Origin: an uncultured Verrucomicrobiota bacterium
GTDB taxonomy: Bacteria; Verrucomicrobiota; Verrucomicrobiia; Limisphaerales; UBA8199
DNA length: 64,000 nucleotides
Reading direction: 5' to 3'
Assembly (NCBI GenBank): GCA_964507045.1
Contig: CAZDOO010000023.1
Location: 703-64,702, forward strand
Within the stretch, counting starts at the first letter, position 1; every line of letters begins with the position of its first letter. The translations under genes and the position numbers were made by a program. Shown here in pieces: positions 3,947-55,724 of the stretch. The notes beneath the pieces were generated by a model. It was not told where the DNA came from. It made no database searches and saw only the letters and a list, made by a program, of their open reading frames with translations.

Positions 3947-4504
3947 TCACTTCACCAGCGCTTGGATTTGCTTGAACTCGGCGGTGCCCGCCTGTTCCAG
4001 CAGTTCAAAGAGCACCATCTCTGTGGATACGATTGCCGCCCCGGCGGCGCGCATGCGGTCCAGGCCAAACCGGTAGTTTGCGGGCGTGCGCGAGGACACC
4101 GCGTCCGCTGCCACGAAGACCCGGCAGCCCCTGTCCAGCAGGTCCAGGCAAGTCTGCATAACGCACACGTGGGACTCGACGCCGCAGAGGATGAGATCGG
4201 CAGTCTTCTTAGCCTCAAGCGCGGCCAGGAGCCCGGCAGCGCCGCAGGCGCTGAAGGCGAGCTTTTCCAAAGGCGCAAAGCCTGGGATGGCTGTGGCCAC
4301 CTCCGGCACCGTCGGCCCCAGCCCTTTGCGATATTGCTCCGTCGCGAAGACCGGCACTTGGAGAACGGCAGCGCCCTTAATCAGGCGCACGGCGTTTTCC
4401 CGCACCCGCTCCTGTTCATACATGGCCGACATGAGCCGCTCCTGGAGGTCCACGACCAGCAAGCCCGCCTGCGCTCGCATCAAACGAAGTGATTTCTTTT
4501 GCAT
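3947..4504 (-). CDS. Isochorismatase-family (cysteine hydrolase) protein
   Basis: ATG 4504 (MQKKSLRLMRAQAGLLVVDLQ). Catalytic-Cys context is LILCGVESHVCVMQT. Confidence 0.85.
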   Translation of the reverse strand: MQKKSLRLMRAQAGLLVVDLQERLMSAMYEQERVRENAVRLIKGAAVLQVPVFATEQYRKGLGPTVPEVATAIPGFAPLEKLAFSACGAAGLLAALEAKKTADLILCGVESHVCVMQTCLDLLDRGCRVFVAADAVSSRTPANYRFGLDRMRAAGAAIVSTEMVLFELLEQAGTAEFKQIQALVK

Positions 4505-9667: not shown

Positions 9668-11074
9668 TCATTTCTGCCGGAACTGGTAAACGTGCACCTC
9701 GAACGGGCCAAACCAGTCCGCGAAGCTGCCGTGTTCCGCATCCACTTTCCGCGGCTCCTCGAAGACCACCGTTCCCGCACCTTCACCGTGGACCTTCTGG
9801 GGCAAGCCGCTGAAGCGCACGCGGATCGTGGGGCCCTCCTTCTTGCAGGCCAGCACGTAGATGTCATCCCCCGCCTCGCGCACCAGCCATTCGAGGGCGC
9901 TGGCATCTGCACTGACCGCATCCTGCACGAACTGTCCCGGGGTTGCTGCCTGGCGGTTCTGTTCCTCTTCCTTATTCGCCACCGCGCGCTTTGGAGGAGC
10001 TTCCGCCACAACCTTGAGCTTGAGGTTGGAGTTGGCCGCCAGCAGGGCCGGGAGGATCGGTGACTTCGGCCCGATCTCCTCGAAGAGCGGGCGCATCACG
10101 CGGTCGAAATATGTCCAGTTGAATCCCCGGGGCTTATCCCGCTCGTTGAGCGTCTGCGGCAGACCGCCGCCGAAATAGGTCAGCCCGCGGGCGCCGTTGA
10201 TGATCGCCTCGTAGGCCATGAAGCGCTGCTCCGGAAACGTCGGGAAGCGCAGCGTGCGCCCGGGCTTGACTACGCCCGAGAAGGCGATCTGGAGCGTCAT
10301 CCAGAACGGCTTTTCGCCCGCCACTTGCTTCATCATGCGGGTGAAGTCGCCCACCATGCTCAGCTCATTGTTCTTCTCCTCCGAATGCACTCCGGGCGGA
10401 TAGCTCACCGGATAGATGTCTATGCCGCCGACGTCCCACCCCGCGTCGTAGCGTTTCAGCGAGGCCACAGTTCCGCGCGGCGCCTGCACCAGCCAGATGG
10501 GATGGTCTGGATCGAGTTCGCGGAGGAGCTGTGCCACGTGCGCAACCTGCTGCGGCGTTGATTTCCCGGAGTTATGCGAGTTTCCCCAATCCGGTTCGTC
10601 GGCGCCTTTCCATAGGCCCATGCCGGGGGAGTCCTTGAAGGCGGCAATCACCTTCCGCAGCTTCGCCTCCTGCTTCTGGTCGCCCGGGTCGAAGTTGGAG
10701 AGGTCCCAGCCCAGCCACGGGCAGCAGCGCAGCCCGCCCGCCGCCGCCGCGGCTTGCATCGCCTTCTCCCGCTCGATCGTCTCGCCGTTCCAGGCCGGGC
10801 CGCCAGACCGCATGAACACCACGCCGCAGTCTGCGAACTCCGCGTAGGCCGGCCGGCCGTTGGGGGCCTTGGCGTCCGGCTCCGGCACAATGGTCAAGTT
10901 GAGGGGGAACTTCTTTTGCCCATCCACTACCAGCGCCCCTGCGTCGTCGAACGCGATCTTCGCCGGCTTCGTCAGCGCCTCCGCCGCCCGCGCCGGCGCG
11001 CTCAATCCCGCCGCCAATAGAGCTGCTCCCGTGCATCCGCCCGCCAGCGTTCTGAAGAACTTTGCAGCAATCAC
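9668..11074 (-). CDS. Secreted glycoside-hydrolase-like protein (family not identified)
   Basis: The first 43 codons of track ORF 9668..11203 read through the MITE terminus. In-frame GTG 11074 gives signal peptide MIAAKFFRTLAGGCTGAALLAAGLSAPARA. ADEPDWGN resembles the NEP acid/base motif of clan GH-A TIM barrels. Confidence 0.55.
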   Translation of the reverse strand: MIAAKFFRTLAGGCTGAALLAAGLSAPARAAEALTKPAKIAFDDAGALVVDGQKKFPLNLTIVPEPDAKAPNGRPAYAEFADCGVVFMRSGGPAWNGETIEREKAMQAAAAAGGLRCCPWLGWDLSNFDPGDQKQEAKLRKVIAAFKDSPGMGLWKGADEPDWGNSHNSGKSTPQQVAHVAQLLRELDPDHPIWLVQAPRGTVASLKRYDAGWDVGGIDIYPVSYPPGVHSEEKNNELSMVGDFTRMMKQVAGEKPFWMTLQIAFSGVVKPGRTLRFPTFPEQRFMAYEAIINGARGLTYFGGGLPQTLNERDKPRGFNWTYFDRVMRPLFEEIGPKSPILPALLAANSNLKLKVVAEAPPKRAVANKEEEQNRQAATPGQFVQDAVSADASALEWLVREAGDDIYVLACKKEGPTIRVRFSGLPQKVHGEGAGTVVFEEPRKVDAEHGSFADWFGPFEVHVYQFRQK

Positions 11075-11141
11075 GAGCGCTATCCTTGACGAGACAGATG
11101 CCGGTTCGTCAATGAGAATGTCGTCTGGTGCGCCACGCGAA

Positions 11142-11559
11142 GCGCATCTCACTTTCCCGCAATAAAGCGAGATGCGCCGGTCGTGCGCGGCGCAACCCGA
11201 CACCCCCCCCGGTTGGCCCGGGCTCCCTCCCCATCCTTGCGCCAGCCCCCCTCCGTCTCCTCACCGTATACACACCGTAGCACCTCTCATAATTTATGAG
11301 AGGTGCTACGGTGTGTATACGGTGTGTAGACGGTGAGATAGGCCTGGGTGGAGCGGCATAGGCCCCGGATCGGGAGGTTGCCGGCCTTTTAGGGCCGTTC
11401 GGATCGCGAGCCGACCCCGGCCGTCAAGTGGTGCGGCGCGCAGCTCGGCCTGTAACAAACGCCTATATTCCGGTCGGCCCGGCCAGGAGTTGACCCGGGG
11501 AGCCGACCAGAATGTCGGCGCCCCGACCCTCCCGTTGCAGGAAAGTGAGATGCGCCACG
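11142..11559 (-). mobile_element. MITE-like non-autonomous element, copy 1 (418 bp)
   Basis: Perfect 16-bp TIR: GCGCATCTCACTTTCC at 11142-11157 is the reverse complement of 11540-11555. It is flanked by direct CCACGCGAA at 11133-11141 and 11560-11568. It aligns over its whole length, in reverse complement, with 25295-25710. No credible ORF inside. Confidence 0.75.
11262..11324. repeat. Perfect 63-nt palindrome (31-bp arms, 1-nt centre) at the core of MITE copy 1
   Basis: I paired the arms base by base: 11262-11292 pair with 11294-11324 around T11293. The inner 15 bp (TAGCACCTCTCATAA) are identical to copy 2. Confidence 0.9.
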
Positions 11560-11702
11560 CCACGCGAACCCCTGCCTTGCCGGATAGGTGAGTGAGGCAA
11601 CCCGCGTTGAGATTGGCGGGTGCGCGCAAATGAACTTTCGGGCGGGCTGCCCGGCAGACGCGGCTTGGCAGGCGGGCGTCCTTTTTGTAGTAACCAGCAG
11701 GA

Positions 11703-12476
11703 ATGCAGCCCTATGACAGGCGATTTGGCGGCATTGGCCGCTTGTATGGCCAGGACGGACTTGACCGGCTCCGCCGCGGCCATGTCTGCGTGGTCGGTTT
11801 GGGCGGGGTCGGGTCGTGGGCGGTCGAGGCGCTGGCGCGCTCGGGGGTCGGGGAGTTGACCCTGGTGGACTTGGACGATGTCTGCATCAGCAACGTCAAC
11901 CGGCAAGTCCATGCGCTGGAGGGTGAATTAGGCAAGCCGAAAGTGGAAGTGCTGGCGCGGCGCGTGCAGGCGATTAATCCCGACTGCACAGTGCATCCGC
12001 TTCAGGCGTTCTTCCTCAAGTCTAATGCGGAGGAAGTGCTTCAGGCGCCCTATGGTTATGTGCTGGATGCCATTGACAGCCCGTCGCGGAAGTGCCTCTT
12101 GATCGCCCTGTGCCATAAGCGGGGCATCCCGGTGATTGCGACCGGCGCCGCGGGCGGTCGGCGGGACCCGACCGCGGTGGAGGTCATGGATCTGGCCTTC
12201 ACGAGCCATGACCGCCTGTTGCAGGAAGTGCGGTGGGGACTGCGGGCGCAGCACGGATTCCCGCGCGGCGCGCATCCCTTCGGCGTGGAGTGCGTCGTGT
12301 CACGGGAGCGGATGGTGTATCCCGGCAAAGACGGCTCGATCTGCGCCACGCCCGCGGCCAAGCCGGACCTGCGTCTGGACTGCAGGGGCGGCTTTGGCAC
12401 GGCGAGCTTTGTCACCGGCACGTTCGGCTTTGTGGCTGCCTCGCGCATCGTCCAGAAGATCGCCACCCGCGCTTAA
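11703..12476 (+). CDS. tcdA: tRNA threonylcarbamoyladenosine dehydratase (ThiF/MoeB-like E1 fold)
   Basis: 257 aa. RFGGIGRLYG, VCVVGLGGVGSWAVEALARSG and DLDDVCISNVNRQ align closely by eye with E. coli TcdA/CsdL. Confidence 0.85.
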   Translation: MQPYDRRFGGIGRLYGQDGLDRLRRGHVCVVGLGGVGSWAVEALARSGVGELTLVDLDDVCISNVNRQVHALEGELGKPKVEVLARRVQAINPDCTVHPLQAFFLKSNAEEVLQAPYGYVLDAIDSPSRKCLLIALCHKRGIPVIATGAAGGRRDPTAVEVMDLAFTSHDRLLQEVRWGLRAQHGFPRGAHPFGVECVVSRERMVYPGKDGSICATPAAKPDLRLDCRGGFGTASFVTGTFGFVAASRIVQKIATRA

Positions 12477-25242: not shown

Positions 25243-25294
25243 ACCCGGGCTCGCGGGCAAGTCTCTTGAGGAGCGGGCGACTTGCCTGCTGCCG

Positions 25295-25710
25295 TCGGCG
25301 CAGCTCGCTTTCCTGCCAGGGGAGGGGTGGGGCGCCGGCATTCTGGTCGGCCACCGGGTCAACTCCTGGCCGGGCCGACCGGCATATAGGCGTTTGTTAC
25401 AGGCCGAGCCGCACGCCACACCACTCGAGGGCCGGGTTCGGCTCCCGGTCCGGATGGCCCAAAAGCCCAGTAACATCCCGATCCGGGCCATAATCCGCTC
25501 TCCCCTGGCCTAGCTCACCGTCTCCTCACCGTCACCCCTCCCTAGCACCTCTCATAATTTATGAGAGGTGCTAGGGAGGGGTGACGGTGAGGAGACGGAG
25601 GGGTGACGGTGGGGGGCTGGAGCAGGGGGTCCCGGCCGAACCGGGGGGGTGTCGGGTGGCGCCGCGCAGAAGGGGCGCAGCCCGGCTTGTTACAGGAAAG
25701 TGAGATGCGT
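25295..25710 (+). mobile_element. MITE-like non-autonomous element, copy 2 (416 bp)
   Basis: Degenerate TIRs: 25298-25313 is GCGCAGCTCGCTTTCC, and the reverse complement of 25695-25710 is ACGCATCTCACTTTCC. It is flanked by direct CCTGCTGCCG at 25285-25294 and 25711-25720. It is collinear with the reverse complement of 11142-11559. Confidence 0.75.
25518..25598. repeat. Perfect 81-nt palindrome (40-bp arms, 1-nt centre) at the core of MITE copy 2
   Basis: I paired the arms base by base: 25518-25557 pair with 25559-25598 around T25558. Confidence 0.9.
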
Positions 25711-25756
25711 CCTGCTGCCGCCTCAGCCCATCCGGACTTGAATTCTCGCGCCATCC

Positions 25757-46028: not shown

Positions 46029-46101
46029 GCCACTCGTTTCAAGCTACAAGTTGCCTTCTCGCCGGACGACACAGGCGCCCGCGGTGTGGGGCCGGAGTAA
46101 T

Positions 46102-46167
46102 AGCGGAGTATCAGCGGAATATCAGCGGAATACGAGCGGAACACGAGCGGAGCATGAGCGGGACTCA
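46102..46167 (-). repeat. Six tandem 11-bp phased repeats (AGCGGAAnAnn on + strand) upstream of trpA
   Basis: Units are AGCGGAGTATC, AGCGGAATATC, AGCGGAATACG, AGCGGAACACG, AGCGGAGCATG and AGCGGGACTCA. The array ends 74 nt upstream of the trpA ATG. A homologous array lies at 55670-55724. Confidence 0.85.
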
Positions 46168-48036: not shown

Positions 48037-48138
48037 GGGAAACATCCAACATCCAACATCCAACATCGAACTACCAACGGGTGGCACCGAGCCGCCCAAT
48101 GGATGTTGGGCGTCGGATGTTGGAGGTTGGATGTTCCC
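48037..48138 (-). repeat. ~100-nt imperfect inverted repeat (long stem-loop) containing CATCCAA heptamer repeats, between the nadC stop and the birA start
   Basis: The left arm begins GGGAAACATCCAACATCCAACATCCAACATCGAAC. The right arm ends GGATGTTGGGCGTCGGATGTTGGAGGTTGGATGTTCCC. About 38 of 48 arm positions pair by eye. The 3' arm on the mRNA ends 10 nt before the birA ATG. Confidence 0.8.
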
Positions 48139-55669: not shown

Positions 55670-55724
55670 GGTGTTCCGCTCGTCTTTCGCTCGTATTCCG
55701 CTGATATTCCGCTCGTACTGCTGC
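55670..55724 (+). repeat. Array of 11-bp phased repeats (nnTnTTCCGCT) upstream of the metallophosphoesterase gene
   Basis: Units are GGTGTTCCGCT, CGTCTTTCGCT, CGTATTCCGCT, GATATTCCGCT and the degenerate CGTACTGCTGC. It aligns with the reverse complement of 46102-46167. Confidence 0.8.

Follow-up and report, generated by a model that had tools for sequence, protein, structure and literature searches.

How can a long perfect DNA palindrome keep its symmetry while its sequence changes? The question is raised by two intergenic sites in a 64,000-nucleotide stretch of contig CAZDOO010000023.1 (hereafter the window, meaning the whole of that stretch), which carries housekeeping genes and whose host belongs to the Verrucomicrobiota. 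An earlier note on this DNA had pointed out that the central palindromes of the two sites share their innermost base pairs and differ in an adjacent block at which both arms have changed together, and had read this as a sign that a DNA cruciform or an RNA hairpin is under selection or is corrected with the hairpin as template. The coordinates, arm lengths, shared inner 15 bp and mirrored 10-bp block that it gave are all borne out by the sequence. The feature is real but not unprecedented: it forms the central hairpin of a family of small mobile repeats in soil and peat Verrucomicrobia, closest to the GTAG class of repetitive extragenic palindromes (REPs) and REPINs, and in the window it sits in the middle of a miniature inverted-repeat transposable element (MITE).

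Two palindromes with a mirrored difference

The palindrome of the second site (copy 2, 25518-25598) consists of two 40-nt arms, 25518-25557 and 25559-25598, that are 100% complementary around a single central T at 25558, a length near the upper end of the range in the family (perfect arms of 14 to 44 nt in complete copies). That of the first (copy 1, 11253-11333) has 40-nt arms at 11253-11292 and 11294-11333 that are 95% complementary, with 38 of 40 positions paired, and is perfect over 11262-11324 (11262-11292 against 11294-11324, 31 nt per arm). Both copies have the same inner 15 nt in each arm (TAGCACCTCTCATAA-T-TTATGAGAGGTGCTA, central base included), and hence a common central stretch of 31 bp (11278-11308 in copy 1 and 25543-25573 in copy 2); with the preceding G this reads as GTAG, a 12-bp stem, T, the stem again and CTAC. 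Next to it comes a 10-bp block, with ATACACACCG/CGGTGTGTAT for copy 1 but CACCCCTCCC/GGGAGGGGTG for copy 2. The copies disagree at seven of its ten positions, and all seven differences are mirrored on the opposite arm. The half-site has four exact matches in the window where 0.53 would be expected by chance, and no others were found in the 64 kb with up to three mismatches permitted. As single-stranded DNA (ssDNA), the 81-mers fold at -52.7 kcal/mol (z = -19.6) for copy 2 and -42.3 kcal/mol (z = -16.0) for copy 1. Two perfect palindromes with mirrored block differences cannot be chance.

A dispersed module with an invariant core

With 24 nt of the core as the query, a search through a collection of one genome per species returned one contig (L007; loci are given by such handles where they need to be told apart), and a metagenome scan with the innermost 20 nt returned 25 loci, mostly from peat, soil and digesters, among which the AT-rich L018 is a chance match. 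Beyond the window, the core is present in 23 further independent loci, all apparently from Verrucomicrobiota (Limisphaerales-like); there are two copies in the window, and six module-bearing contigs came from one peat metagenome. Scanned viral contigs and plasmids gave no matches, a covariance-model search of the window and loci gave no degenerate extra copies, and the core sequence was not found in the papers searched, in which only unrelated primer sequences matched.

When all loci were compared with one another by BLAST, only about 65-100 bp around the dyad proved common to all of them. Flanks differ beyond about ±50 nt, and the longer similarities are either orthologous flanks of related strains or mark a few element subfamilies. 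Because it is also present with unrelated flanks, the palindrome behaves as an independent module. In L023 the long arm of the window's MITE is joined to an unrelated left arm; L011, L012, L020 and L030 have one arm only in common; and the hybrid L025 combines an L031-type left arm with a right arm of the L024 type. A long open reading frame (ORF) beside the module in L015, L024, L025 and L029 was considered as part of the element and set aside, as it has no Pfam match and belongs to an orthologous flanking gene. All copies of the module are intergenic. Of the 12 contexts that can be classified, 6 are divergent promoter regions, 2 are convergent and 3-4 are tandem, and several modules lie 86-240 bp after stop codons. 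No function common to the neighboring genes was found.

In an alignment of 24 copies, built outward from the dyad, positions ±1 to ±15 do not vary except for position 15 in L028; the search pattern fixed only ±1 to ±10, and 10 of the 30 core positions were thus not preset. Extended to position 16, the core is GTAG-CACCTCTCATAA-N-TTATGAGAGGTG-CTAC, which reads GTAG on both strands, and within this tag (columns 30-33) the G is conserved in 18, the T in 23, the A in 24 and the last G in 24 of the 24 copies. Because 31 bp are invariant, including 10 positions outside the search pattern, either purifying selection on the sequence or very recent spread is required.

Outside the core lie three to five tandem 11-bp units that decay outward, with the right-arm consensus CGGAGGGGCTA, in which G is conserved at positions 2, 3, 5 and 7, and a conserved CGG.G.GG within each unit. 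At a lag of 11 the self-match reaches 55%, where shuffled sequences give 32% (z = 26); at a lag of 22 it is again high (z = 18). The module is therefore layered, with an invariant core, a variable but symmetric first 11-bp subrepeat, a weakly symmetric second unit, and outer units that keep the 11-bp phase and have no symmetry. In the right arm of copy 1 the subrepeats occupy 11307-11335 on the forward strand (TACGGTGTGTA, 2.6 copies by Tandem Repeats Finder), with mirror units at about 11251-11277; in the right arm of copy 2 the array GGGAGGGGTGA CGGTGAGGAGA CGGAGGGGTGA CGGTGGGGGGC runs over 25574-25620 on the forward strand, with mirror units at about 25496-25542, and Tandem Repeats Finder reports period 11 and 3.4 copies at 25578-25614. 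The variable block of the earlier note is real, but it is the variable part of the innermost of these tandem units, which that note did not mention; the GTAG tag, the 11-bp periodicity, and the ends and target-site duplications of the carrier described below were likewise missed.

Arms that covary, probably as DNA

Across the 24 copies, 86.7% of the cells of a 45-pair hairpin are paired, against 81.8% after partner shuffling (0 of 500 shuffles), and double-sided changes number 59 where 28 are expected (0 of 500 shuffles), counts that overstate the number of independent events since the loci are related. Sliding the partner by one to three columns lowers pairing to 41-52%. Pairs 21/71, 22/70, 23/69, 25/67 and 27/65 carry three to seven double-sided changes each, and pair 30/62, which is GC in 18 copies, AT in 3 and CG in 3 and is never unpaired, shows at least two or three independent events. 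The symmetry fades with distance from the dyad: at positions 16-26 the two arms of one element are 95% identical and arms of different elements 74% (unit 1; 0 of 5000 permutations), with corresponding values of 69% and 63% at positions 27-37 (unit 2; 38 of 5000), and 60% and 63% at positions 38-45, where there is no signal. That both arms change together with pairing kept, as proposed from two copies, thus holds far beyond chance for the inner stem, and the pairing of this stem across 24 copies also fits the proposal that a DNA cruciform is selected for, or is corrected from its own hairpin.

The inner-stem arms appear to be kept complementary at the level of DNA. G·T pairs make up 3 of 14 mismatches in the inner stem, a small sample, and 25 of 158 in the outer stem, where about one sixth would be expected by chance. 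Neither stem in the window is followed by a run of T, a terminator scan of 10900-11800 reports none there, and a promoter scan was also negative. At gathering score, Rfam 15 finds only a tRNA-Ser in the window, and near the element its only matches, to generic miRNA hairpins, stay below threshold. We favor a constraint on the stem as DNA over one on RNA, because there is no excess of G·T, no T-tract and no Rfam family, and both window copies lie between gene starts. The one gathering-score match, tRNA-Ser (GGA), is at 1667-1757; just downstream of it, a hairpin at 1990-2047 gets a weak score from the module model and is in all likelihood a common terminator.

The carrier MITE

In the window the palindromic module is carried by a repeat of about 418 bp, in which it lies centrally, between a short and a long arm. 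Copy 1 lies at 11142-11559 on the forward strand (~418 bp) and copy 2, inverted relative to it and 14 kb away, at 25294-25710 on the reverse strand (~417 bp). Direct repeats flank both, CCACGCGAA at 11133-11141 and 11560-11568 around copy 1, and CCTGCTGCC at 25285-25293 (long-arm end) and 25711-25719 (short-arm end) around copy 2, each pair 9/9 identical. Terminal inverted repeats (TIRs) of the form N-CGCATCTCACTTTCC... / ...GGAAAGTGAGATGCG-NNNNN are present at both ends of copy 1, copy 2 and a third copy on metagenome contig L021, which has the same ends and is flanked by ACCGCAC(GG/AA). Read in one register, the direct repeats of the three copies match at 9/9, 9/9 and 7/9 positions (9/9 in the (3,3) register for the last); the register slides by 1-2 nt, and so the direct repeat is 9-11 bp long. 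The copies are 82-85% identical (83% overall between copies 1 and 2, 82-83% between copy 1 and L021) and measure 403-412 bp from one TIR core to the other. A chance ORF poor in GC3 and upstream extensions of the reading frames of flanking genes are the sole ORFs that overlap the element. Terminal inverted repeats, target-site duplications (TSDs), a small non-coding body and several diverged copies are the marks of a MITE, one that has moved as a unit with 9-bp (possibly up to 11-bp) target duplications and has inserted twice in the window. The two sites are indeed copies of one element, as the earlier note held; its view that the rest of the element has diverged freely does not agree with 83% identity overall.

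Both insertions lie between ordinary, divergently transcribed genes, copy 1 between a leftward gene for a secreted protein and a rightward tcdA, and copy 2 between a leftward mscS-like gene (start 25242) and a rightward nucleoside:H+ symporter gene (from about 25757). Copy 2 occupies nearly the whole of the latter intergenic region, which would measure ~90 bp without the element, and mscS and the symporter gene may take promoters or leaders from it. At the MITE ends (11143-11159, 11538-11554, 25299-25315 and 25693-25709) there are outward-facing AGGAAAGTGAG-ATG sequences, resembling a Shine-Dalgarno sequence followed by a start codon, which are out of frame with the neighboring genes in the window. 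A leader for divergent genes, with ribosome-binding site and ATG, was therefore considered and rejected, in that the GGAAAGTGAGATG motif is out of frame and belongs to the terminal repeat. The short-arm end of copy 1 also has a small hairpin of its own at 11143-11180 (GCGCATCTCACTTT / AAAGCGAGATGCGC). Since a CCTGTAACAA motif related to this hairpin recurs within the long arm at about 11450-11465, the sequence suggests that the MITE is itself composite. Logan contigs of the same strain, which is present in SRR10083292-96, ERR12717847 and ERR14847237, end inside copy 1 at 11469 and inside copy 2 at about 25374, and the short-read assemblies of the strain all break within the 29-mer that is best conserved in the element.

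Origin of the difference between the window copies

Copy 2, L021 and L023, all relatives within the MITE family, carry xxCCCCTCCC/GGGAGGGGxx at the variable block, and because they share it we take copy 1 to be the derived form. Copy 1 instead has TGTGTA-type units, as unit 1 on both arms and as unit 2 on the long-arm (right) side, beyond which both arms revert to the family sequence. At 30% identity, the block stands out from an element with ~17% divergence (binomial P about 3e-4 by our own arithmetic). Because the block is so much more divergent than its surroundings, the difference between the two copies looks like one replaced contiguous patch spanning the dyad, from about -26 to +37, rather than a product of gradual compensation. 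The patch could have been copied from another module, or have spread between arms and neighboring units; the CGGTGTGT unit type of copy 1 is also found in L044, where the CTACGGTGTGT unit is identical. Seven independent compensatory changes do not describe this pattern, in which units of one type occupy one left-arm and two right-arm positions.

A double-sided change in place can be followed among the orthologous loci L015, L019, L029, L024, L010, L025 and L031, where CCGTAG..CTACGG has become CCATAG..CTATGG, with L025 the hybrid. The central base flips between T and A, and is never G or C, among orthologous sequences that are 96-99% identical; within the MITE family, with all members oriented alike, it is T in copy 1 and A in copy 2, L021 and L023. 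Such flips would fit a physical exchange between arms, a reading that we treat cautiously.

A hairpin module and the alternatives

We read the palindrome as a REP/REPIN-like ssDNA hairpin module of a non-autonomous element, carried in the middle of a MITE, its arms kept by element-level selection, templated conversion or both, and we give this reading about an even chance of being correct. Of the roles that the earlier note had listed, the transposition-related hairpin is the best. The module would act as a single-stranded DNA hairpin or an extruded cruciform, and would be read by a sequence-specific enzyme that recognizes the core, most likely a HUH/Y1 (RAYT- or IS200-like) transposase encoded elsewhere in the genome. 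The complementarity of the variable shell would then be kept by two routes: the copies with a good stem are those that propagate, and templated repair or gene conversion across the tip of the hairpin can overwrite an arm with the sequence of its partner or of a different module. Both may contribute, and the 10-bp difference between the window copies, about -26 to +37 in copy 1, would be one patch of the second kind.

Several points weigh against this. No transposase, Y1_Tnp included, was found among the genes of the 64-kb window that were scanned or inspected, and neither a Y1/HUH nor any other transposase or recombinase was found beside the modules (neighbors in 20 loci) save an unrelated IS21 in L026. 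A conserved center within a variable shell is the reverse of REPINs, which have conserved ends and a variable spacer, and in E. coli perfect stems of great stability are said to serve RAYT poorly as substrates (PMC8266576). The 9-bp target duplications of the MITE point to a DDE-type transposase, and for that reason the hairpin module may have no part in MITE mobility. The relatedness of the loci, noted above, inflates the covariation counts; de Bruijn assembly of perfect palindromes may mis-orient the center base and could in principle affect some of the symmetry; and the 11-bp phasing suggests protein binding to duplex DNA. Membership of REP/REPIN is likewise not established: by analogy, the module works like, and may belong to, that class.

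In an unlikely alternative the module is a protein platform on duplex DNA, with a dimer on the symmetric 31-bp core and further protomers on the 11-bp units along one face of the helix, and serves as an operator, centromere or insulator that rides a mobile element. Arrays of 11-bp iterons and direct repeats bound by proteins such as winged-helix response regulators, ParR/RHH-type centromere binders or nucleoid proteins, the candidates here, are well established. A core conserved strictly in sequence, beyond what pairing alone would ask, agrees with such a platform, as do the strong periodicity with CGG.G.GG in each unit, the presence of other direct 11-bp arrays in intergenic DNA of the window, and the half share of divergent promoter regions among the classifiable contexts. 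The half-site sequence should then be conserved, however, whereas unit 1 is 95% symmetric at 74% identity between elements; moreover, the neighboring genes share no function, the contexts include convergent and tandem ones, and the module travels with the MITE. Pairing might instead be selected in RNA, as a bidirectional terminator, mRNA stabilizer, RNase III site or small-RNA precursor. The stem is very stable and covaries, several modules follow stop codons, and REPs reportedly occur for the most part downstream of genes and act as RNA elements (PMC3733652). We nevertheless consider this improbable, with no T/U tract after the stem, a terminator scan that misses the module, only sub-threshold generic miRNA-hairpin matches in Rfam, and mismatches that show no tolerance of G·U. 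Both window copies lie between divergent gene starts, where no transcript need cross, and an invariant 31-nt core demands a reader of sequence beyond a mere stem. The earlier suggestions of a terminator or insulator specific to divergent genes and of a small-RNA precursor are not supported by these observations, the former also because the other loci are divergent, convergent and tandem.

The reassortment of arms (in L023, in L011, L012, L020 and L030, in the hybrid L025 and in the solo half-array of L044) would follow readily if the core were a recombination site, either a crossover site, for example of a tyrosine recombinase with the 7-bp TAATTTA as overlap, or a hot spot of homologous exchange, with recombination homogenizing the arms. 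An asymmetric central base that is only ever T or A and flips between near-identical orthologues is in keeping with this, and the inner CATAA/TTATG motif resembles, as we see it, the inner part of dif sites. We hold it to be very unlikely all the same: a single-base center is unlike the 6-8-bp spacer of Xer, lox or att cores, no recombinase gene is nearby, the center flips may be assembly ambiguity, and both window copies retain matched target duplications, which implies that they have not recombined with each other since insertion. With two copies 14 kb apart and many per metagenome there is no unique dif site, and a dif/Xer-type or other tyrosine-recombinase core, with two ~11-bp arms about a 6-8-bp spacer, was rejected for a dyad that has one central base and recurs at 25 loci in total. 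Nor is function a necessary assumption, and the palindrome might be a neutral passenger of the MITE whose symmetry is a by-product of replication template-switching; perfect arms that range from 14 to 44 nt, symmetry that fades smoothly away from the tip, the patch-like difference of the window copies and the existence of other tandem-subrepeat hairpins in the window, such as the 7-mer arrays at 48041-48135, are all in its favor. Against 17-20% divergence in the flanks, though, the 31 bp invariant in 24 loci with unrelated flanks make this account, too, one of low probability. Distinctly unlikely, if a little less so, is a more specific scheme in which the module is a bacterial hairpin element of a kind not described before, some enzyme reads the invariant GTAG-tagged tip and oligomerizes on the 11-bp-phased iterons, and the inner arms are re-templated from one another, whether by flip-flop, in a rolling-hairpin-like manner or by strand switching. 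If true, it would explain the covariation of the arms, the central-base flips and the reassortment of flanks at the core, and the modules would be portable hot spots of recombination and rearrangement in Limisphaerales genomes, hitch-hiking on DDE-type MITEs.

The family offers about two dozen diverged copies, some of them at orthologous sites, as a clean natural data set on how a long perfect DNA palindrome can change in sequence and yet stay symmetric. Given complete genomes and read-level data, this could help to separate element-level selection on an ssDNA hairpin from arm-to-arm templated conversion, in a debate on REPs and REPINs that has been drawn mostly from Proteobacteria. The family also extends REP-like hairpin repeats to uncultured soil and peat Verrucomicrobiota, with one nested in a MITE of the TIR/TSD type. 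The modules break short-read assemblies. They also probably affect the expression of neighboring genes, since they sit in promoter regions and copy 2 takes up an intergenic region of which only ~90 bp would be left without it.

Related arrays and neighboring elements

Three other repeats of the window deserve description. Between trpA and coaX, at 46093-46161, there is a direct tandem array of seven AGCGGAATATC-type 11-bp units, and upstream of a metallophosphoesterase/PQQ gene, at 55674-55717, four 11-bp units of the same family on the other strand; both have a CGGA skeleton and an 11-bp phase like those of the module subrepeats, without the palindromic core. Between the start of birA and the end of nadC, at 48041-48135, a hairpin is formed by inverted (AACATCC) x4-5 and (GGATGTT) x5 separated by a 24-nt spacer.

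Among the other loci, the sole match in the genome collection, L007 (DATKNZ010000252.1, 3350-4501), is labeled as a metagenome-assembled genome of Candidatus Acidoferrum (Acidobacteriota), and its RecF is 81-83% identical to Verrucomicrobiae/Limisphaerales proteins. Judging from this similarity it is probably a mis-binned verrucomicrobial contig, and because of that we discard spread across phyla, for which it gives no evidence. The orthologous recF upstream region in L044 (2240-2286), and also in L046, has a solo direct array of TCTACGGTGTG (4.3 copies) without the core palindrome, a half-module comparable to REP singlets; it was considered as an empty site and rejected, being too rearranged and bearing only this half-array. 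In L026 the outer edge of the module is the exact insertion point of a complete IS21-family element (176-2730; IstA 266-1765, IstB 1762-2526) that has TG...CA terminal repeats and, inside, 23-bp repeats; L022 is the uninterrupted counterpart of this locus. The palindrome does not represent abutted IS21 ends, as this element has its own unrelated TG...CA repeats at 176-204 and 2702-2730 and stops before the module. Finally, the 10-kb locus L030 bears, besides its module, a different and partly palindromic repeat of ~150 bp that occurs twice, at 4085-4232 and 9695-9845.

Comparison with known systems

The carrier resembles bacterial MITEs, of which the Correia elements of Neisseria, ERIC, RUP and Nezha are examples, in its size of ~400 bp, the absence of coding sequence, its TIRs and target-site duplications, its intergenic position near gene starts and its several diverged copies. 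Most MITEs fold by way of their terminal repeats, whereas this element has a separate and far better conserved perfect palindrome in its middle, and we know of no parent insertion sequence with matching ends. Correction of quasipalindromes by template switching during replication (the Ripley model, with the E. coli thyA hotspots) provides a way in which templated change of both arms near a hairpin tip can occur without selection. This process is known for short stems and single mutations, however, and it leaves the invariant core and the dispersal of the module unexplained.

Phased iterons beside a hairpin are also found at the origins served by HUH enzymes, such as the double-strand origins (dso) of rolling-circle plasmids like pMV158, with its 11-bp direct repeats, and the stem-loop origins of CRESS-DNA viruses, while the termini of parvoviruses and poxviruses are flip-flop hairpins. 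The likeness, as we perceive it, is in an AT-rich conserved tip, pairing that is kept above sequence, phased iterons and the flipping of an asymmetric tip. Unlike HUH origins, the module has no Rep gene and is chromosomal, multi-copy and symmetric on both sides.

The closest likeness is to REPs, defined as palindromes of 20-50 nt preceded by a conserved tetranucleotide, usually GTAG (PMC8266576). In Group 3 the palindromes are perfect with GTAG directly before them, and the last two positions of the tag are critical for cleavage by RAYT/TnpA-REP, which acts on single-stranded DNA (PMC8266576). GTAG REPs are described as abundant in the verrucomicrobium Opitutus terrae, with some dimers only 1-2 bp apart, and REP dimers as often lying within longer palindromes (PMC3733652). 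The module shares with GTAG REPs a dispersed, extragenic palindrome with GTAG directly before it and the last tag positions invariant, and with REPINs a long hairpin that evolves as a unit by compensatory changes on its two sides, although its conserved and variable parts are inverted relative to theirs. It departs from REPINs also in a stem that is perfect and much longer (26-44 bp), in arms that are arrays of 11-bp subrepeats and in a tag that is symmetric on both strands. Compensatory changes across REPIN hairpins have been reported to be common (PMC3116915), and the compensation seen here is of a kind already described for REP/REPIN; its unusual traits are that it is nested, that its 11-bp arrays are phased and that the base at the dyad may flip.

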